A stretch of DNA of 64,000 bases from the sequence record NC_041871.1; one strand, written 5' to 3'. The translations under genes and the position numbers were made by a program. The notes below the pieces were generated by a model. The model saw only the letters and a program-made list of their open reading frames with translations, did no database searches and was not told the DNA's origin. This document shows positions 3,579 through 43,003 of this stretch, piece after piece. Numbering within the stretch: position 1 is the first letter of the stretch; each line of letters starts with the position of its first letter. The stretch is from Escherichia phage Murica.

Positions 3579-4292
3579 ATGCTGAATACTAAACTGATCG
3601 ACAACCTGGAAAAACTGTCTCAGCCTGAAAACTACCTTTGGTCTGCCAACTGGGTGGAAAACTGGAACCGTGTGGCAGCTAAAGTGAAAAAATCATACAC
3701 ACCATTCGAATTACAGCTTAGCTTCATTGAGGAAGAGTTCAATGAGGTTTTGGAAGAGCTGGAGAAAGGTGATGGTGGAGATCACCTGTTAAAAGAGGCC
3801 TGCGATCTTCACGTTGTCACAAGTTATGCCGCCTATCTTGTTAATGACAATCACGAAAAGTGGTCAAACCTGTTTGATAATCCACGAGGTCTTAAGTTCA
3901 AGATCGGTGAGTTCTATGATACACTGATCGCTGCGAAAAACACATCCAAGCAAAGAGCGTCAGCTTACCGCTTAGCGGAGTTGTCAACAGCTTTGCTGTT
4001 CCAGCTTCGCGGCGATGTGTGTGGGATGATGCGGAAGGTTCTCAAATCTAATGACAGTAAGTTTGCACGGATCAACCATCTACGGCATTCACACGGTGCC
4101 AGTGCAGATATGCCTGCTGAACAACTCATCGAGTTGGAGATTAAAGATCTTGAGCGTCGTTTTGGTGGTCGCTACGAAGGTTTTGTTGCTAAGGAAGAGT
4201 TCTACAACGGTAATAAAGTTATCATATTCCTTGACAGTAAAGGTAAGATCATGAAGCCTTCGAGCTTCAAGGATGTAACAGAGTATATTTGA
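3579..4292 (+). CDS. MazG-like nucleotide pyrophosphohydrolase domain protein
   Basis: N-terminal EExxE...ExxD pattern (FIEEEFNEVLEEL ... KEACD) typical of MazG/HisE all-alpha NTP pyrophosphatases; C-terminal half unassigned. Confidence 0.45.
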   Translation: MLNTKLIDNLEKLSQPENYLWSANWVENWNRVAAKVKKSYTPFELQLSFIEEEFNEVLEELEKGDGGDHLLKEACDLHVVTSYAAYLVNDNHEKWSNLFDNPRGLKFKIGEFYDTLIAAKNTSKQRASAYRLAELSTALLFQLRGDVCGMMRKVLKSNDSKFARINHLRHSHGASADMPAEQLIELEIKDLERRFGGRYEGFVAKEEFYNGNKVIIFLDSKGKIMKPSSFKDVTEYI

Positions 4293-4298
4293 CAACAT

Positions 4299-4327
4299 AG
4301 CCGGGTAATCCCGGCTTTACTTATTAT
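4299..4327 (+). terminator. intrinsic terminator
   Basis: Hairpin AGCCGGG-taat-CCCGGCT followed by TTTACTTATTAT directly after the 3579-4292 stop. Confidence 0.6.
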
Positions 4328-4354
4328 GGAAAGTATGCAGCGAGGTAGTTAGTT

Positions 4355-4663
4355 ATGTACAAGCATTCCAGAGATCTTGAAAAAGATGCTGTGTTTGGCG
4401 ACCAGATGAAGGAGCTGATCAAACTTATAGGTAGAATGGAAGATAAGTTTGACACTAAAATCTACATCGATAGCAAGATCTTCAACCACAAAATATGGAC
4501 AAATGTGTGTGTTGGGCTACATGGTGATAAAGATATTGTAAATTTGGTTGTAATAAAGTTCATAGTGTGGCAGAATAAGACTATACGTTATTCCGATCCA
4601 CACTTACTTGTTTATCCTATAAAAGACCTACTACAGAAGGAGGACTGCAATGCCGTTATTTAA
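4355..4663 (+). CDS. hypothetical protein
   Basis: 102-aa ORF in co-directional array. Confidence 0.4.
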   Translation: MYKHSRDLEKDAVFGDQMKELIKLIGRMEDKFDTKIYIDSKIFNHKIWTNVCVGLHGDKDIVNLVVIKFIVWQNKTIRYSDPHLLVYPIKDLLQKEDCNAVI

Positions 4664-4919
4664 TCTTGCTAAACCTGTAGAAGCCCACCAGTTTGACGGA
4701 AGCTCTTCATCAGTATCTGATCTGCAACGGTGGATTGATACAGGTGTGTTTACATCGTCACCTGTTCGGACCAGAGATCTTCGTCGCATGTGTGAGCTTG
4801 TCGAGCCTTTTGGTAACCTTGTCTTGTACCAGGGAGATTGGCTAGTTGACTTTATGGGAGACTGGTTGGTAATGAGTAAAGAAGAGATGTTTAAAATTTT
4901 TAAGGAAGAGGCCGAGTAA
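4650..4919 (+). CDS. hypothetical protein
   Basis: 89-aa ORF; start overlaps the upstream gene end, stop overlaps the ligase start. Confidence 0.4.
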   Translation: MPLFNLAKPVEAHQFDGSSSSVSDLQRWIDTGVFTSSPVRTRDLRRMCELVEPFGNLVLYQGDWLVDFMGDWLVMSKEEMFKIFKEEAE

Positions 4920-14103: not shown

Positions 14104-14690
14104 TCGGAATTGATGTAGATCTGACACTGGTAGATTCAGGAACAGCATGGTGGGAGTGGTTGGAGCGTTTGTATGGTCCAGCCAGTAAGACAGTAGCTAA
14201 ACCTTCTAATGGGCTAATGTATTACGATCTGTCAAAGTATTGGCCTGATCGTCCCAAAGAAAACATCATAGGACCTTTTGATTTCTGGAGTGATCCGTTC
14301 CTCTACGACTTCCTTAAGCCTGAAGAGGGGGCTATTGAGGTTATGAAAGATTTGGTGGCTCGTGGTCACAAGCTTGCATTTATCTCGGTATGCAAGAAAG
14401 GTCACCTTGCATCTAAATCAAGGTTCTTAAAGCGTTGGACCAGTGATTTTATGGATCTGGACGATCACACCCAAGGCCACGGCTTCTACGCCACACATTT
14501 CAAAGGGAATGTGGCTGTAGATGTTATAATTGACGACAGGCATGAATACCTGAACCAATTCGCTTCACGACCTGAAGTTATTAAAATCCTAAAAGATACA
14601 CCTTATGAGCAATTCGAGGAGTTAAAGGTCAGTGTTGACTATACCGCTAATAGCTGGTATAAAATAGGAAAATTTTTAGAAGGTATTTGA
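14097..14690 (+). CDS. HAD-superfamily phosphatase (5'(3')-deoxyribonucleotidase-like)
   Basis: Motif I IGIDVDLTLVD (DxDxT) at the N-terminus and a VIIDD acidic motif. Confidence 0.6.
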   Translation: MLIGIDVDLTLVDSGTAWWEWLERLYGPASKTVAKPSNGLMYYDLSKYWPDRPKENIIGPFDFWSDPFLYDFLKPEEGAIEVMKDLVARGHKLAFISVCKKGHLASKSRFLKRWTSDFMDLDDHTQGHGFYATHFKGNVAVDVIIDDRHEYLNQFASRPEVIKILKDTPYEQFEELKVSVDYTANSWYKIGKFLEGI

Positions 14691-35922: not shown

Positions 35923-36077
35923 TAGTATAGTGACTAACAAGAGGTGAGGAATGACTGATTTTACTGAAGCTTTAATGATGGCCTTGTCTGTTTTAGCGCT
36001 ATCGGTGTGTTTTGGGGCGTTATTCACATCTCTGGTTAAAGTTTTACATACAGTATTATTACCCAAGGAGCGCAGTA

Positions 36078-36329
36078 ATGACGAAGATTGACTTAAATGC
36101 TGGAGACCATGTTGTTGTCAAATGCATCGGAGATTATCTTGGATTCACAATCGGCAATACTTACGAGGCGGTAGTGGCGAAGGTTTACCATGATAAAGTC
36201 CTCAGTCTTGTATTTGACTGCGATGATGATGGGGATGACCGATACGTCTGTGAGGTGCTGGCACGAGACGATAGTGAAGACCAGAAATTCCTGGTTATTG
36301 AACTGAACGGTATTTTTGTAGAACGTTAA
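36078..36329 (+). CDS. small acidic protein
   Basis: ATG 36078 after AAGGAG; ORF-track start 36012 has no RBS. Confidence 0.4.
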   Translation: MTKIDLNAGDHVVVKCIGDYLGFTIGNTYEAVVAKVYHDKVLSLVFDCDDDGDDRYVCEVLARDDSEDQKFLVIELNGIFVER

Positions 36330-36357
36330 TTTAAAACAACATAAGGAGACTCTTACT

Positions 36358-36663
36358 ATGGCTAAATCTAAAGTTGAACTGTTCACCTCTCTTCCTTCTG
36401 ACACTGCAGAGCGTGATCGCCTTCGCAAAACAATCGAAGAACTGGTAGAACTCCAACTTCAGATTAAAGATCTGAAAGATGCCATTAAGGATATCATTCT
36501 CGTTGAGAAGCAGGATCACCTGTATTCTCCTAAATTCATCAAATCTCTGGTGGCTACCGAGTTCGATATTCGCTATGAGGCTGAAAAACGTCGCGCTAAA
36601 ATCGAAGAAGAGGTTGAGCACATGTCTGAGGCAGACATTCTGTTCAAACGCTCTGTAGAATAA
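36358..36663 (+). CDS. coiled-coil protein
   Basis: 101 aa, charged heptad-like pattern; strong AAGGAGA RBS and terminator immediately downstream. Confidence 0.5.
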   Translation: MAKSKVELFTSLPSDTAERDRLRKTIEELVELQLQIKDLKDAIKDIILVEKQDHLYSPKFIKSLVATEFDIRYEAEKRRAKIEEEVEHMSEADILFKRSVE

Positions 36664-36672
36664 TGACAAAGA

Positions 36673-36697
36673 GAGGGGCTTGGGCCCCTCTTTTTAC
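36673..36697 (+). terminator. intrinsic terminator
   Basis: GAGGGGC-ttgg-GCCCCTC followed by TTTTTACT. Confidence 0.8.
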
Positions 36698-36718
36698 TAT
36701 CTATGAAGGAGATTTGAG

Positions 36719-37045
36719 ATGGGTATACCAATCACTGTAAAAGAATTGAATGAGCGTGATGCAGGCGGTCTATGGCCTGCACGAAAAATCCGCTGCGTCT
36801 ATATGAAAGAGAATCTTGAACATCTTGATCAACAGATCAAGGTCGGTGATATTTTTGAGGTCTTCTATTCCAATCGTCGTAACTGGGAAACCATTCAACC
36901 TTCTGGTTTTGTTCTTGCCAAACTTGACACTGGAGAAGTGATTATCCCTGGGTTGGATATTGTCTTCGAAATTATCCAGGAGTGGGATCCGGATAAGATT
37001 AGATACGAAGAGTTATTCGGTAAAGGTATTATCAAACCTGTGTGA
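36719..37045 (+). CDS. hypothetical protein
   Basis: 108-aa ORF. Confidence 0.4.
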   Translation: MGIPITVKELNERDAGGLWPARKIRCVYMKENLEHLDQQIKVGDIFEVFYSNRRNWETIQPSGFVLAKLDTGEVIIPGLDIVFEIIQEWDPDKIRYEELFGKGIIKPV

Positions 37046-37353
37046 GGTGGATTATGTCTACAAAGGCGGCTAAATACTCCTACATGCCATCAACCTCTGC
37101 AGAGGTAGACTTTAGTTTCGATGTGTTTCCACTGTTTGAGGTGGTTCTGGCATACCCAACAATACTATCTACTCCTGAATCACTTGTACCTGTTAAGTTG
37201 CAGAACGCTATGCATTCTATGCACTACAACAATAAATGTAGGCACAGATGGTGTCAGGACGAGGAAAAAGATTTGGATAGTTTGAGGGATTTTGACAGTC
37301 ACCTTTTGACACCTTTCAGCTACTCCAACCTTGATAAGCCCTCATGGGTATAG
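37042..37353 (+). CDS. hypothetical protein
   Basis: 103-aa ORF with overlapping start. Confidence 0.4.
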   Translation: MRWIMSTKAAKYSYMPSTSAEVDFSFDVFPLFEVVLAYPTILSTPESLVPVKLQNAMHSMHYNNKCRHRWCQDEEKDLDSLRDFDSHLLTPFSYSNLDKPSWV

Positions 37354-37377
37354 CAAAATATCAAATTTAAGACACCT

Positions 37378-37405
37378 AGGACGCTCTGTGGCGTCCTTTT
37401 CTTTA
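37378..37405 (+). terminator. intrinsic terminator
   Basis: AGGACGC-tctgtg-GCGTCCT followed by TTTCTTTATCT. Confidence 0.75.
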
Positions 37406-37566
37406 TCTGGTGCACGATTGCATACCTTGGACAGATAATCTCGTTACAGAGCGTTTAAGAGCTTTCTACAAACAAGTCTCTCTTTCGAGCGTAGCGAGAA
37501 CGCACGTCCGTTTTGACCAAAATCACCATACGCTCGGATTTTAACCAAACCCTCGCGGCGTTGCTG

Positions 37567-37595
37567 TTGACACATTACCGCTCCCGTGATAGTAT
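37567..37595 (+). promoter_or_regulatory. sigma70-type promoter TTGACA-17-TAGTAT
   Basis: Consensus -35 with 17-nt spacer upstream of the small ORF at 37616. Confidence 0.55.
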
Positions 37596-37615
37596 CCACA
37601 CACAGTTTGGAGAAT

Positions 37616-37717
37616 ATGGAATACACAATGAGAACATTGTCTGAAGTTTTAGTGGTGATCCTGATGATCATTACTTCCATAGCGGCTGTTGCCGGAATAC
37701 TCACGGGTGGAACATGA
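37616..37717 (+). CDS. small hydrophobic peptide (about 30 aa)
   Basis: Single TM-like segment LVVILMIITSIAAVAGIL; stop overlaps ATG of ORF 37714; start ambiguous (37616 or 37628). Confidence 0.3.
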   Translation: MEYTMRTLSEVLVVILMIITSIAAVAGILTGGT

Positions 37718-37926
37718 TCAACACACATGCACCTGAAGAGACATCCAAAGGAGTGACCATATGTCCCTTGGCTGAGCCAGTTAGAGAGGAAAACTTAGAT
37801 TCTGAGGACTCTTCATCTTCGTCCCAGACAGATCCTGAGGCTGATGACCTGACGTGGGAGGACATCGTAGATATCTGGTTCTCTATTATGCCTGAGCACG
37901 AAGAGTTCAGAGGTGGTAGACTATGA
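37714..37926 (+). CDS. small acidic protein
   Basis: 70 aa, serine/acidic-rich. Confidence 0.4.
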   Translation: MINTHAPEETSKGVTICPLAEPVREENLDSEDSSSSSQTDPEADDLTWEDIVDIWFSIMPEHEEFRGGRL

Positions 37927-38046
37927 AGCACCGAGCCCACACAGGTTCCTCATGCTAAAGCATGGCCTGAAGAGGCAAACGTGTATAATTCCTGTGCATT
38001 GTGACGTATAAAACCCGTTCACACTCTCATTTCCAGAGGAGATTTT

Positions 38047-38262
38047 ATGAAGATAGAAATATTTGGTGGAGCTGACAACACTCGTGGCCTGATTTACCTG
38101 GAATTCGATGAATCATACCTGCCAGAGGTGTTAAATATAGACTCTGTTGCTGAGGCTTTGGGAGTAAACCCTAAAGAACTCCACTCTTGTGCTGAGATCG
38201 ATGGTTGGGAAGAGACCATGAACATTGATTTCAGTGAAGTAGAGGATGAACCGCTGGACTGA
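38047..38262 (+). CDS. small acidic protein, MKIE paralog family (probable)
   Basis: MKIEIFGGADNTRGLIYLEF; last plus-strand gene before the non-coding gap. Confidence 0.45.
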   Translation: MKIEIFGGADNTRGLIYLEFDESYLPEVLNIDSVAEALGVNPKELHSCAEIDGWEETMNIDFSEVEDEPLD

Positions 38263-39739
38263 CACACAATTAGCTGCCCGGCTAAAGTGCTGGAGCACCT
38301 ACAATACATCTTTCAACTAAATTTCCCACCACCACAATCACTTACCTTCCACACATGACTGTTTGCTTGTTTAGTGAGCAGTCATGCCTTGACATTCTTG
38401 CCTATCCTGATAAAATTAAGTTCTTCTCTTTTCTTTTACCGAGTAATTCGGGTTTTCTGTTCTCTTCGGTTTGAAGGGGTATGGAGATACACCTGAGTGA
38501 ACATGGTGAACAACCGAACATTTGGCTATGGCATTAGCATGGCGAAGCGGACGGGTGACGAAAGAGGGGCCGGAGGACACCAGTCACTGCCATATGATAT
38601 ATGGGTGATAACCTGAAGAGTCTGAATAAGTGTTTAAGTACCAGTCAGAGGAAAAGGTGAATGGTAGCCGAAGGGGGAGGGGGGTTTCTTGTATCTTTAA
38701 TTTGTATATTATGTATACACTCGTAAACCAATCTCATCTGAATCTGTTTACCACACAAAGTAGATAGGGACAAATATCACCTATTAAACTTGAATTATTT
38801 ATAGAAAATACCACAACACCACTTAAGTCTTTGATTTTACACACAAATCCTACAGATATTCAACCTCTATATTTAACATATTCATAACATATTCCATACT
38901 CTACCTGTCTGATCAATTTACCCAACCACATCCTCCATATTTTCCCTGTCTGTACCACCCCTGCCCCGCCGGGAGTCCCGTCATATCTGGCTTTCCAGCA
39001 AATATCACACCCACAAATATCATTGCCTGAAGAGGGTTTCATCCCATAGTACATGCCTTACCTGAAGAGCGCTTCATACACCACGTAAATTTTTTAATTT
39101 ACCCCCCCTCCCCGCCGCCGGAGTGGTCGGCTTTTCCCACACAGGCCTGAAGAGTCAGCCAGAAATATCTGAACAGGTCCAGTTATACCACGATTTTGAC
39201 CTGACCGACAGGAGTGCTGCCAGGCGGACGGAATGGGAATACTTCTCATTCTTATAATAATTCTCAAATATCGAGGCAGTGAGGCAAATTAATAGGTGAG
39301 GCCGTTCACACAGTGGCACAACATTTGCAATCTATTTTGTGAGGGTGAATGAGAATACCTATCATTGTGAGAACTGTTATCATTACGGGCAATTTAACAT
39401 AATACCCATTATGCGCACCACTGGCGATCCATACAGGGATTGATAACATGAGTTACAGTTTACGCATATAACAATCATATTTCTTACTATTTGTGTGGGA
39501 TATAGTTAGCAGCCGATAGATTAGATATTGACCTGTGGACTTCCAACCGTCTAGACGTCTAAACGCCCACACAACAAGGATTATACATACATTACTGAAT
39601 GTAAACAGGGCCGCAAAAATGCTACCATACCAGATTGTAAATTTTTCATGCAGCACTTGACAAAGAGGAGAAAAACTTGTCTGACACAATATGACATACT
39701 GGGCACATTAAACACACTTTAGACTTAATTGACATGCCT

Positions 39740-39862
39740 GACTGTTTACGCTGTCACTATTCACGCTATTACTATTCACTCCCTTTACTGTTCACGCTCT
39801 TACTGTTTACATGCTTAATGGTTTACATGACCAATAGTTTACATAGCTAACTATTTACATGG
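39740..39862. repeat. array of eight tandem 15-17-bp iterons
   Basis: Head-to-tail units ending TT(T/C)AC(G/A/T) with 15-16-bp period (e.g. ctgtcactattcacg, ctattactattcact, ctcttactgtttacatg, ccaatagtttacatag). Confidence 0.75.
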
Positions 39863-39871
39863 AAATGATAA

Positions 39872-40153
39872 GCCATGCCATTCGTTTGCATGATAACTAT
39901 TAGCAAGTTAATAATCTTTCGCTGGCTATGCCAGGTGACCTTTGGTCACCCCTTCGGGTGTTTCTATGACATAATATAAAAGCAGGGCAACTATTAGAAG
40001 ATCTATAGTTGCCTTGCTTGTTATGTCATGATTAACTAAATACAAGGCAACTATGATCTGATTAATAGTTTGCAAACAAACTATCACGGGGGGTGATGGT
40101 TACTGCTTTTATATTATGTCGCGACTCCGTCGCGCCATGCCATTCGTTTGCAT
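39872..40153. repeat. 262-bp dyad-rich element bounded by exact 20-bp direct repeats
   Basis: GCCATGCCATTCGTTTGCAT at 39872-39891 and 40134-40153; internal inverted repeats GGTGACC-ttt-GGTCACC, GGCAACTAT..ATAGTTGCC, GACATAATATAAAAGCA / TGCTTTTATATTATGTC. Confidence 0.75.
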
Positions 40154-40765
40154 AGTTGCCTTATTGTTACAGATAAAATAATTGTATTGTTAATTATTTC
40201 TTATCTTTCTCTTAGTCATCTAATGATTCCAGTCAGTATAGTAATGTACAGTAAACATTAGACGACTAAAGATTTATATGCTTATAATAACTTACAGTGA
40301 CAATTTCGGACTGTTTACGAAAAATGTTGACACCTGAGCCGATTTATGTTATGCAGTTTACACGAATAATTATTTTATGCAGGTATTGACTATTCCGTTA
40401 TTCTATGGTCGGAATAAATACTTAGCAGTCTATAGAATGGTGACGCTACGTGAATTCTGGAATTTAGTGGCTATAGTTATACCCGATTTTTCACGTAGAA
40501 CACGCTTTTGTGGTTATGTAAGTGTATGACTTATAAAGATTTTTAGTTGTTGACAAGACACTGAAGATATGCATCAGGTTAAATTTTGTGCAATAGCTGC
40601 ATTACGTGCAATTTTGGAAGGAAAAACGTGTAAAAATGGCCCTGCTACCACACAATGAAAGATTATGCAATAGCTATTTTATATGTATGTTTGTACAGTG
40701 TGTGGGATTGATGGCTAGTCAATTATTCCACTTGCCAGGTGGGGACGTTTGTGGTAGGAGAAATA

Positions 40766-40798
40766 CAGACAAAAAGAAAGGGGCCTTTTAAAGCCCCT
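40766..40798 (-). terminator. intrinsic terminator for minus-strand gene 40817-41236
   Basis: Minus strand: AGGGGC-N8-GCCCCT followed by TTCTTTTTGTC. Confidence 0.7.
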
Positions 40799-40816
40799 GA
40801 TAGTTTAGTTAAGAAA

Positions 40817-41236
40817 TTATAATGATTCGTATATTTCATAGATTCGATTTGCCAGGTCGTTACGGTAGCGGAATTTTTCCTCACGTTTGATCATCAGATC
40901 TTTAAAGCCATATTCTTTAAGCACTTCATTAACTTTATGGCGGCATACCTTCATATTATCCTGTGCGTCACCAATAAACTTGTTGCTATGGTGCATGGCT
41001 TTAATTTCTTCTTCCAGGACCAGGGCAACTATGCGGACCGGATCAAGCTGATAGGCGGTAACATCAATGCGGCATTGTAAACGGCTTTTTACGTCTGCCA
41101 CCGGATATACTGCAACCTCTTCCCCGTCAACATTGACAATAATTAGTTTACCATCGATTTCGAATCCTTTCGCCGCCGGACCGTGACAAAAAGCGTTATC
41201 AAAGCTATATGCCGGATTATTAGATTTAATGTTCAT
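40817..41236 (-). CDS. hypothetical protein
   Basis: 139-aa ORF with promoter upstream and terminator downstream. Confidence 0.5.
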   Translation of the reverse strand: MNIKSNNPAYSFDNAFCHGPAAKGFEIDGKLIIVNVDGEEVAVYPVADVKSRLQCRIDVTAYQLDPVRIVALVLEEEIKAMHHSNKFIGDAQDNMKVCRHKVNEVLKEYGFKDLMIKREEKFRYRNDLANRIYEIYESL

Positions 41237-41285
41237 GGTGTTTTTACCTCTTAGTTAATTTTCTTACAACTTCCCTTCAAAAAAG

Positions 41286-41314
41286 AATATAGCAAAACTG
41301 CCGATCCTTGTCAA
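41286..41314 (-). promoter_or_regulatory. sigma70-type promoter TTGACA-17-TATATT (minus strand)
   Basis: Consensus hexamers upstream of gene 40817-41236. Confidence 0.6.
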
Positions 41315-41381
41315 CCAAGGATAGCATAATTTTTATGTGATCAAGGGGCTTTATTGCCCCCTGATCGTGCAACTTGTTGTA

Positions 41382-41645
41382 TTATTTGTTACTCATCCAG
41401 TTTTCCCAGGCTGCCTGATAATCTGCCTCACTGCGGCGGATCTCTTCTTGCTCTTCAAGTCGGATCTCTTCTTCCAGGTACCCCAAGATATCGGCTTTCT
41501 TGGTCTGGCGTAACATCCAATCATCTTTTTTACGGGTAAAGATCTTATATGCTTTCTCGCAAACCTCTTTTTTGCTACCTTTTTGGACTTCAAGAACTTT
41601 GTAGGCCATGTACTGAACTAGTTTAAGCTGATCAAGACGTTTCAT
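41382..41645 (-). CDS. hypothetical protein
   Basis: 87-aa charged ORF. Confidence 0.4.
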   Translation of the reverse strand: MKRLDQLKLVQYMAYKVLEVQKGSKKEVCEKAYKIFTRKKDDWMLRQTKKADILGYLEEEIRLEEQEEIRRSEADYQAAWENWMSNK

Positions 41646-41705
41646 GATGTTTACCTCTTTGTGTGGTTCTGATTAGTGGGCCTCCCGGCCCGTGTCATTA
41701 TCTTA

Positions 41706-41978
41706 TTACTTACGGCGGCAGAATTCAAGCGTTTTTAATTGATAATCTTCCTCAGCCTGGAGTACAACCGCCTCGATCATTTCGTTGGCATTGTTGAAGC
41801 CATACCCTTTAGCGAACTCGTCCGCACCACCTTCGTGATCATGTTCTGCGTTCATCGCTTCCACAAAATGGAATTCCAAATTGTTGAGGTAGGGGCTTGA
41901 TGTGCCGTCTTCTTTTTCGATGAGATCCCAAATAGCATTAAAACGTGATTCGACTTCTTGATTAATCCAGCTTGACAT
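41706..41978 (-). CDS. hypothetical protein
   Basis: 90-aa acidic ORF with AAGAGAGGAAAA RBS. Confidence 0.45.
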   Translation of the reverse strand: MSSWINQEVESRFNAIWDLIEKEDGTSSPYLNNLEFHFVEAMNAEHDHEGGADEFAKGYGFNNANEMIEAVVLQAEEDYQLKTLEFCRRK

Positions 41979-42032
41979 AGTGTTTTCCTCTCTTCTGGTT
42001 GTTGTGTGGGCACCTTTGCCCCTTCAAGATAA

Positions 42033-42061
42033 ATGTTACCCCACCCCATGGCAGATGTCAA
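42033..42061 (-). promoter_or_regulatory. sigma70-type promoter TTGACA-17-TAACAT (minus strand)
   Basis: Upstream of gene 41706-41978; second candidate TTGACT-17-TATTCT at 42138-42166. Confidence 0.5.
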
Positions 42062-42196
42062 CGGTTTTTATAGTTCTTATATGACAGGCAGGCCTGGTGA
42101 TTGTCTCCCCCTGTTCCCAAGTGCCGCCCGTTTAATAAGAATAGCAAAAGGGGCCGAACAAGTCAACCCCAAAATCAGTACCAAAACACTTTTTAT

Positions 42197-42508
42197 TTAT
42201 ACGGTCCGGTCATTGGCCTTTGTCCAGGACCTGGCGATCCGTTTCCCAGTCACCTGGAACGGAGACTGCATTGTGTGTAATGAATCCAGCGTAAGGGAGG
42301 ACCGTTTACGGCGTATCTTCAGGATCGCCAATGTATTGTCCATCTCACGGCCAGGTCCTGGGCGGTATGGAGTGCCTCCAGCGTTAAGGTTGATGATCTC
42401 ATGTATTGAGATCCGGCGTTGTTTTGCTTCCGCATCTTTGAAGATAGCCAGCGGTGGCGCTATACGTTGCCGATACCAATCTAAAACGGTTGGCGTAATA
42501 GCGATCAT
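42197..42508 (-). CDS. hypothetical basic protein
   Basis: 103 aa; start overlaps upstream stop. Confidence 0.4.
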   Translation of the reverse strand: MIAITPTVLDWYRQRIAPPLAIFKDAEAKQRRISIHEIINLNAGGTPYRPGPGREMDNTLAILKIRRKRSSLTLDSLHTMQSPFQVTGKRIARSWTKANDRTV

Positions 42509-42696
42509 ATTTTACCCCCTATGTAGTCAGGTCGGTTTTTCTCTGTCATGCGCTTTAGCAATTCGTGCATGTTACTTATAGCTTGTAGTGTATCCTCTTC
42601 CAGGCTTGAATCAACATAATCAGGATCGTCTATGACCTTTCTATGATTATGATAACGCAGTACCGCCAATACCTTTCTAACTTGTTCAGTATTCAT
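42505..42696 (-). CDS. hypothetical protein
   Basis: 63-aa ORF. Confidence 0.35.
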   Translation of the reverse strand: MNTEQVRKVLAVLRYHNHRKVIDDPDYVDSSLEEDTLQAISNMHELLKRMTEKNRPDYIGGKI

Positions 42697-42712
42697 TTTA
42701 CATCTCCCTTAC

Positions 42713-43003
42713 TTATTGTTGGCGGTTTACGTAAGCTTTACCGTTTACCGTCATCGGCAAATCTTCCAGGTCTGGATCTTCCTTAAGGTCGCGAGCAAGT
42801 TCACCGCACCGGATACCCTCGAATCCGTAGTACTCTGTTGTACCGTCATTAAAAGTTTTAGTGGCAAGGCATAAGCGATAAGTAACCCCGATTCGATTGA
42901 CGGCATGAATATCCGTTAGATTAACCTCTTTTGCCAGCTCATTAGCCATTGCAGGCGCACTAAGTCCAACAACCAGGGCAACCACTGCGATCATCTTTTT
43001 CAT
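42713..43003 (-). CDS. secreted (periplasmic) small protein
   Basis: N-terminal signal peptide MKKMIAVVALVVGLSAPAMA with AxA cleavage site; two Cys in mature part. Confidence 0.5.
   Translation of the reverse strand: MKKMIAVVALVVGLSAPAMANELAKEVNLTDIHAVNRIGVTYRLCLATKTFNDGTTEYYGFEGIRCGELARDLKEDPDLEDLPMTVNGKAYVNRQQ

Follow-up and report, generated by a model that had tools for sequence, protein, structure and literature searches.

Phage T7 ends in a 160-bp repeat, which is flanked by short-repeat arrays, SRL and SRR, and by the orphan promoters phiOL and phiOR. In phages lambda and SPP1, arrays of binding sites for the small terminase subunit (cosB and pac, respectively) lie beside the cut site. 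Here, we analyzed a 64,000-nucleotide (nt) stretch of Escherichia phage Murica (NC_041871.1; hereafter the window), in which a 2.5-kb gap poor in open reading frames (ORF), at positions 38263-40816, separates two converging gene blocks. A first-pass annotation made from the letters alone had singled out this gap without accounting for it in full. We regard the terminal-repeat, or concatemer-junction, region of a linear phage chromosome as its best explanation, and we consider it probable that the gap is such a region with a candidate non-coding RNA unit embedded in it. In the related phage rV5 the gap corresponds to NC_011041 104014-106617, between ORF163 (rightward) and ORF164 (leftward), which the rV5 paper drew as a gray "non-coding" box with no function assigned. 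A 458-bp terminal redundancy was reported for phages EdH4 and HdK5 (Korf et al. 2019). Box and redundancy belong to the same locus as the Murica gap, at 90-97% identity; both are already published, and we found no paper that connects them.

The evidence for a terminal repeat comes from the ends of related genomes. The first 459 bases of the EdH4 record are identical to its last 459 bases (100% identity), so that this close relative has the same sequence at both ends, as T7-type phages do, and these bases map to 39223-39681 in the window. The records of EdH4, YN3, and phages named "bov" open at 39223, where CM1 has an internal junction, and the record of Pr121LW opens exactly at 39681, in reverse orientation. 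The boundaries are thus fixed and common to relatives. Indeed, both are invariant in sequence within Vequintavirus, the genus of the rV5-like Escherichia coli myoviruses, with indel hot-spots directly outside each. In the divergent lineage L153, alignment to the window is lost after a conserved island (38355-38710) and resumes exactly at 39222.

A comparable arrangement is known from a second genus of the same subfamily. In KPP-1 (Mydovirus), a direct terminal repeat (DTR) of 514 bp was identified by two-fold coverage and by PhageTerm, which classed it as T7-type (PMC9862379). The KPP-1 DTR sits in a ∼1.8-kb ORF-poor gap where rightward and leftward gene blocks converge, and the two gaps display weak collinear similarity (E = 7e-4, 7e-4, and 0.014). 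They have in common a left boundary motif, GTGCT(GCC)A/G[GA]CGGAC (the slash marks the boundary), and a right boundary motif, CTTGACAA[AG]GAG...A[AC]TTGT[CG], or, in short form, G[AG]CGGAC and CTTGACAARGAG...TTGT, respectively; related boundary motifs are also present in lineage L153. Taken together, the EdH4 ends, the record openings, the KPP-1 DTR, and the behavior of the boundaries lead us to read 39223-39681 as a single collapsed copy of a terminal repeat. Some points speak against this assignment. The ends of Murica itself are deduced from relatives that are 86-97% identical, the rV5 paper treated that genome as circularly permuted, a paper from 2026 reports that PhageTerm called headful packaging in another Vequintavirus, and some of the records opening at 39223 may just have been re-oriented to match EdH4. 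The features of the locus are listed in Table 1.

Table 1. Features in and around the non-coding gap of the Murica window (a slash in a sequence marks the boundary of the repeat).
Feature	Position	Strand	Description or basis
Sigma-70-type promoter	38389-38416	+	TTGACA, 16-nt spacer, TAAAAT, with TG upstream (TG-n-TAAAAT); 11/12 consensus positions
Hyper-conserved non-coding unit	38423-38688	+	∼266 nt; candidate non-coding RNA; ends GAAGGGGGAGGGGGGTTT
Right-end flank	38689-39222	+	C-rich, G-poor + strand with oriented motifs; GC skew, motif counts
Direct terminal repeat equivalent	39223-39681		458/459 bp, one collapsed copy; EdH4 ends, record openings, KPP-1 motifs
Boundaries of the repeat			Left, GTGCTGCCA/GGCGGACGG; right, CTTGACAAAGAGGAGAAAAACTTGTC/
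Variable array of GACACAAT-like 8-9-mers	39682-39740	+	Directly right of the repeat
Iteron array	39741-39861	+	∼8 copies of ACTRTTYAC / RTAGTTTACAT, 15-16-bp spacing
Inverted-repeat cluster	39872-40169		
AT-rich non-coding stretch	40170-40778		34% GC; weak promoter-like sites; repeated TTATGCA
Intrinsic terminator of the leftward block (ORF164)	40779-40798	-	8-bp stem and T-run

The lack of genes that the first-pass annotation had noticed is real. With a cut-off of 80 amino acids (aa), the window has no longer ORF-free run than the one that includes the gap (37729-40816, 3088 bp), the runner-up being 659 bp, and no ORF within 38263-40816 exceeds 78 aa. Approximately 120 GenBank phages match the gap at 90-96% identity, all of them Vequintavirus bar oddly named records. 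We aligned the locus from 15 relatives and scored each gap ORF of at least 30 aa for intactness and codon-position bias. The flanking genes exhibit a strong third-position bias, with variable sites at the three codon positions numbering 8/5/23 in ORF163, 8/3/43 in ORF164, and 8/3/37 in the next gene. None of the gap ORFs does; their variable sites are spread evenly over the codon positions and most of the ORFs are broken in most relatives, including those at 40170-40778, from which we conclude that throughout the genus the gap is indeed non-coding. Its guanine-plus-cytosine (GC) content is 39.4%, and that of the window 42.8%. The annotation had seen no tRNA-like T-arm or acceptor pattern, and ARAGORN found no transfer RNA or transfer-messenger RNA in the whole window. 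A scan of 36000-43000 with Rfam at permissive thresholds matched only terminator hairpins, a weak suhB/mmgR match at 40779-40798 being just the terminator of ORF164.

Gene callers have nonetheless placed ORFs here in some records. A minus-strand ORF of 208 aa was called automatically in two metagenomic contigs (L160 4748-5374 and L161 4749-5375, approximately window 38800-39420), where it covers the C-rich flank together with a portion of the terminal repeat. Its counterparts in sister contigs have 104, 72, or 0 aa, and we rejected it as a gene because it is not conserved and its protein sequence is implausible. In the records of NHEP1 and JLBYU08, 7-14 tiny ORFs are annotated in the gap. All these calls look like over-annotation.

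The architecture of the gap is of a known kind, that of a short-terminal-repeat phage end. Like T7, it has a short, exact, non-coding end repeat, with short-repeat arrays directly outside it on both sides and an orphan promoter near the right end that reads toward that end, and its relative KPP-1 was classed as T7-type. Unlike T7, this is a ∼137-kb myovirus without sequence similarity to that phage, its flanks are much longer (∼1 kb each), the promoter is of the host sigma-70 type, both terminal gene blocks read toward the ends, and the cutting and duplication of the repeat are here deduced. The resemblance to lambda cosB and SPP1 pac lies in oriented, repeated motifs adjoining a specific terminase cut site (a predicted one in our case); the motifs are unrelated in sequence, however, and the ends would be formed by a duplicated repeat rather than being cohesive or headful.

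On this basis, the virion DNA of rV5-like phages would carry a short, exact direct terminal repeat, of which 39223-39681 would be the single copy in the concatemer. Terminase would cleave at both conserved boundaries, with the repeat becoming duplicated as the DNA is packaged, in the manner of T7. By analogy with T7 and lambda cosB, the oriented repeats that flank the terminal repeat would most likely be bound by proteins that recognize the ends and package the DNA, and possibly also by proteins that initiate replication. On the right-end side (left of the repeat in the window) the oriented repeats are CCTGAAGAG, AAATATC, and C-runs, and on the left-end side (right of the repeat) the GACACAAT-like 9-mers, the ACTRTTYAC iterons, and the inverted-repeat cluster. 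Both gene blocks are transcribed towards the chromosome ends. The pattern of skew would make the RNA from either block C-rich and G-poor on entering the gap, which suits Rho-dependent termination, and the gap may therefore double as a Rho-dependent stop zone.

The right-end flank has a GC skew between -0.26 and -0.53. It contains CCTGAAGAG at 39026, 39061, and 39146, five copies of AAATATC, CACACAA, and C-runs at 38958-38971 and 39102-39113. There are eight copies of CCTGAAGAG in the window, all on the + strand, as against 0.5 expected, and six of the eight lie within 37732-39154 (besides the three just listed, copies are at 14319, 21820, 37732, 37966, and 38612). Inverted, the G-run at 38674-38684 matches the C-run at 39103-39113 exactly. 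These flank motifs recur in the same order in KPP-1 and in the otherwise unalignable flank of L153; the preservation of motif order where the flank sequence cannot be aligned argues for function. Copies of CCTGAAG/CTGAAGGG, which are related to CCTGAAGAG, are present in KPP-1 and L153. CCTGAAGAG often lies 2-25 nt downstream of a CACACA motif. We considered it as a promoter element and rejected this, since no consistent -10 follows it downstream.

Additional observations were made around the boundaries of the repeat. At 39199-39211, 10-25 nt outside the left boundary, relatives harbor insertions of 33-50 nt that differ from one another, which marks an indel hot-spot; among them are an insertion with a GC-rich hairpin (GGGAGGCCCGAAGGGTCT...) and one that repeats GGAGTGCTGCC. 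Phage I29 (L003, ON286975) has a ∼545-bp tandem duplication across the left boundary (4163-4770, approximately window 38895-39439), joined via a 65-nt perfect palindrome, which may reflect either a genuine rearrangement or an assembly artefact at the chromosome end. On the right margin of the repeat, a promoter-like TTGTCA-18-TACAAT (39634-39663, minus strand) reads leftwards into the repeat, and KPP-1 has TTGTCA-18-TACAAA at the equivalent position. Because this site overlaps the conserved boundary motif, it may function as a promoter or may just belong to the cut site.

On the other side of the repeat, the iterons reported in the first-pass annotation are present. Copy number and sequence of the GACACAAT-like array vary between close relatives, and the boundary that adjoins it is invariant. 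The iteron zone is the most indel-rich of the locus (identity 0.32-0.57); copy number and spacers of the iterons vary in close relatives, and their core motif is kept in all relatives. The inverted-repeat cluster, with an identity of 0.95-0.996 where present, comprises a 20-nt direct repeat, GCCATGCCATTCGTTTGCAT (39872 and 40134), four GGCAACTAT half-sites, and an 18-nt perfect inverted repeat (39968-39985 and 40103-40120); its analogue in KPP-1 consists of a 21-nt inverted repeat and an 18-nt direct repeat.

This arrangement raises the question whether the gap is chiefly an iteron-type replication origin, in which iterons and inverted repeats would bind an initiator and the AT-rich DNA would melt. 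Such an origin would be compatible with a terminal repeat, and we regard it as a possible but distinctly less probable explanation of the gap. A direct-repeat array is indeed there, with ∼8 regularly spaced iterons followed by the inverted-repeat cluster and the 34% GC stretch, and an iteron-related motif (CAGTTTACAC, AATAGTTAC) is retained in KPP-1. The rV5 authors, who were looking for an origin, noted a change of skew at 104425-105475, i.e. inside the gap, but they ascribed it to the direction of transcription. The iterons are spaced by 15-16 bp and not by the 11 or 22 bp of the helical repeat, and the AT-rich DNA starts ∼300 bp away from them. There is no cluster or enrichment of DnaA boxes, and the one IHF consensus in the gap is at chance level. 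No initiator gene is recognizable beside the iterons, as the flanking proteins fall into PHROGs without assigned function and have no Pfam match. Finally, no part of the locus is less conserved than the iteron zone.

The right-end flank is preceded by a promoter and a hyper-conserved unit, which together appear to form a genus-specific insertion. Both promoter hexamers are invariant in all 24 plus 6 distinct relatives, and even in the L149/L156 lineage, where the spacer has eight substitutions and a 2-nt insertion, they are untouched. In this divergent lineage the spacer changes stop at 38422, so that conservation starts at the predicted transcription start, 7 nt after the promoter; the unit ends at GGGGGAGGGGGGTTT. 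Segment 38380-38720 has 95-99.7% identity in 117 phages, and the remaining gap 85-95%. In windowed comparisons, identity is 0.99-1.0 at 38350-38700 versus ∼0.93-0.96 in neighboring genes, making this the most conserved part of the locus. At the 3' edge, three lineages (LL12, L150, and L153) diverge completely directly past GGGGGAGGGGGGTT, and conservation of the unit stops after GGGGGGTT in three independent lineages. The divergent copies of the unit were obtained through ORF163 homologues. Their length ranges from 212 nt in L153, in which the center is deleted, through about 266-268 nt in the window, to 295 nt in L156, in which a self-contained hairpin of 14 nt has been inserted and 13 nt are duplicated in tandem. 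All versions retain the ∼100 nt at the 5' end and the ∼25 nt at the 3' end. The KPP-1 gap lacks the unit, which therefore looks like a genus-specific insertion that has its own promoter. A promoter of its own and conservation that begins at the predicted transcription start are what is expected of a gene for a non-coding RNA.

Other explanations for the conservation of the unit were considered. As a source of a small protein it was rejected: an ATG at 38503 is found in this window only, and not in relatives, and a 39-aa ORF starting with GTG is interrupted by nonsense variants in two relatives, its changes are mostly non-synonymous, and it matches no PHROG. Indeed, none of the small ORFs of the unit matched a PHROG. 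A BLAST search of 5,426 E. coli genomes returned nothing similar to the island, which indicates that the island is not a captured host RNA.

The first-pass annotation had proposed that a GC-richer stretch at about 38.45-38.70 kb could be a structured RNA, an idea against which a lack of conservation in related phages would have counted. The stretch is GC-richer than the gap overall (48.2% at 38450-38700, with a G>C skew of +0.37), though 38941-39222 is richer still (51.8%), and it is conserved in relatives at ∼99% identity versus 93-96% in neighboring genes. It is also bounded by a promoter and by an end with a G-run and a T-run, and its folding is specific to the + strand; two-sided compensation and an Rfam family are the parts of the RNA interpretation that did not materialize. 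The folding z-score of the exact unit, relative to shuffled sequences, is -2.25, and that of its 5' domain is -3.20 for the + strand as against -1.01 for the - strand. A closing helix is predicted in all lineages, pairing a CU-rich 5' end with a GA-rich 3' end. The consensus fold of the 5' domain has 98.8% of cells paired and places most substitutions in loops, and four pairs with a one-sided change stay paired via G-U. Such wobble-kept pairs fit a + strand RNA in the modeled fold, and not the minus strand or duplex DNA. The 3' end contains a long-range helix and a T-run (38664-38692).

In the most likely scenario, the host-type promoter at 38389 would drive rightward transcription of the unit into a structured RNA, with its pyrimidine-rich 5' end pairing with its purine-rich 3' end. 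Judged from the sequence, we lean, by a modest degree, towards 38423-38688 being a structured non-coding RNA transcribed rightwards. Several findings temper this. No pair in the consensus fold changed on both sides, i.e. there is no compensatory covariation, so the predicted structure is compatible with the data and not proven by them. Searches of the island alone with Rfam 15, whose families include 6S, tmRNA, RNase P, GOLLD/ROOL, sRNAs, and riboswitches, gave best matches of 11-13 bits as against thresholds of 45-109, no canonical terminator hairpin was seen at the 3' end of the unit, and our literature search gave no Vequintavirus transcriptome. Moreover, a hairpin and T-run at 38439-38461 might end most transcripts early. 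This hairpin, CCGA/UCGG with a variable 5-nt loop, lies ∼15-30 nt past the predicted start and is stronger in L153 (CCCGA/UCGGG); it may act as an attenuator or may simply represent helix H1 (38439-42 / 38448-51) of the predicted RNA.

The island might instead act as double-stranded DNA, either as a pac-like terminase site or as a platform for protein binding, with promoter hexamers that are coincidental or that aid opening. The island is ∼530 bp from the boundary of the repeat, holds one copy of CCTGAAGAG, and ends in a CCGAAG-G-run that resembles CCTGAAGAG; GGGGAGGGGGG has a perfect inverted counterpart at a distance of 418 bp (39103-39113), and the island fold shows no covariation. We nevertheless find this doubtful. 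The 266 bp are uniformly near-invariant, far longer than typical binding sites, and the KPP-1 gap, which does share the end motifs, lacks the island. Conservation begins exactly at the +1 of a promoter whose spacer varies freely. Folding stability and wobble-compatible changes are specific to the + strand RNA, and the insertions in one lineage, a self-contained hairpin and a tandem duplication, are of the sort that RNA loops tolerate.

If the unit is an RNA, its 3' end hints at a role. In transcript-primed origins, including those of ColE1 (RNA II), T7 (phi1.1/phiOR), and mitochondria (CSB II, G5AG7 then a T-run), a transcript provides the primer. The 3' end of the unit (GAAGGGGGAGGGGGGTTT followed by AT-rich DNA) resembles the primer-forming CSB II element and the logic of ColE1 RNA II, and this likeness makes a transcript-primed origin the most interesting reading left. 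An R-loop-type sequence, GAAGGGGGAGGGGGGTTTCTT, in which a G-run would be followed by a weak rU:dA stretch, is found at 38670-38690, 250 nt downstream of the promoter. What the locus has in common with such origins, by sequence likeness, is a promoter and a putative structured non-coding transcript that ends with GGGGGAGGGGGG and then a T/AT-rich stretch. As a primer, the transcript would be kept hybridized beside the AT-rich stretch by its CSB II-like GGGGGAGGGGGG-U tract. Phage non-coding RNAs with paired 5' and 3' ends are also known, namely the phi29 pRNA, which is encoded at the genome end, and 6S-like RNAs. Like these, the unit is promoter-proximal, conserved, near a chromosome end, and has a predicted 5'/3' closing helix; unlike these, it differs in size and predicted fold, and it matches none of them in sequence or covariance model. 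That the ∼266-nt unit represents a new class of phage non-coding RNA acting at the chromosome end, whether as an R-loop replication primer or as a cofactor in terminal-repeat processing or packaging, is an unlikely if attractive possibility.

The notion that the gap is decayed coding sequence or a neutral spacer between convergent operons, without specific function, is highly improbable: gene callers annotate many small ORFs in it in some relatives, even one of 208 aa, and its strong strand skew resembles that of coding DNA, but the ORFs are unconserved, without codon-position signal, and predict implausible proteins, the gap is retained in ∼120 phages and in another genus, its motif order is preserved where sequence is not, and part of it is more conserved than genes.

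Most of the finding is ordinary and accounted for; one component, which is of modest interest and can be tested, is a new and uncharacterized candidate for a phage non-coding RNA. To our knowledge, few phage-encoded non-coding RNAs have been characterized, and the promoter-driven unit offers a concrete and cheaply testable one. Our literature search found no paper that places a terminal repeat in the non-coding box, describes the boundary motifs, or annotates the promoter-driven unit, and no functional study of the gap region; the PhageMaP paper deals with the Felixounavirus Bas63 and has no bearing here. Many of the ∼120 Vequintavirus records, which include candidates for therapy and biocontrol, are opened at arbitrary points, and several have spurious small genes in the gap. 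Seeing the gap as a terminal-repeat region provides a natural genome start and allows false ORFs to be removed. It also points to cis-elements needed for packaging, which would be useful for engineering Vequintavirus phages.

Searches for more distant copies of the locus added little. BLAST in distant mode with the island, the remaining gap, and the right boundary matched only Vequintavirus, matches from a 14-mer scan of IMG/VR were nearly all by chance, and protein-anchored and 22-mer scans of IMG/VR and metagenomes gained only a few near-identical copies. Synteny of the ORF158 homologue was uninformative, this gene being in a different context in PVP-SE1, KB57, and FENT2. Approximately 19 records named "UNVERIFIED Campylobacter phage" (GenBank MG0656xx, e.g. 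L004 and L005) have 91-99% identity to E. coli Vequintaviruses across the locus and are probably mislabeled or contaminant genomes. ORF164 (40817-41236, minus strand), the first gene beside the gap, belongs to a PHROG with no assigned function and has no Pfam match. It is cleanly deleted in 4 of the 15 relatives, as seen over window 40800-41380, which identifies it as an accessory gene.

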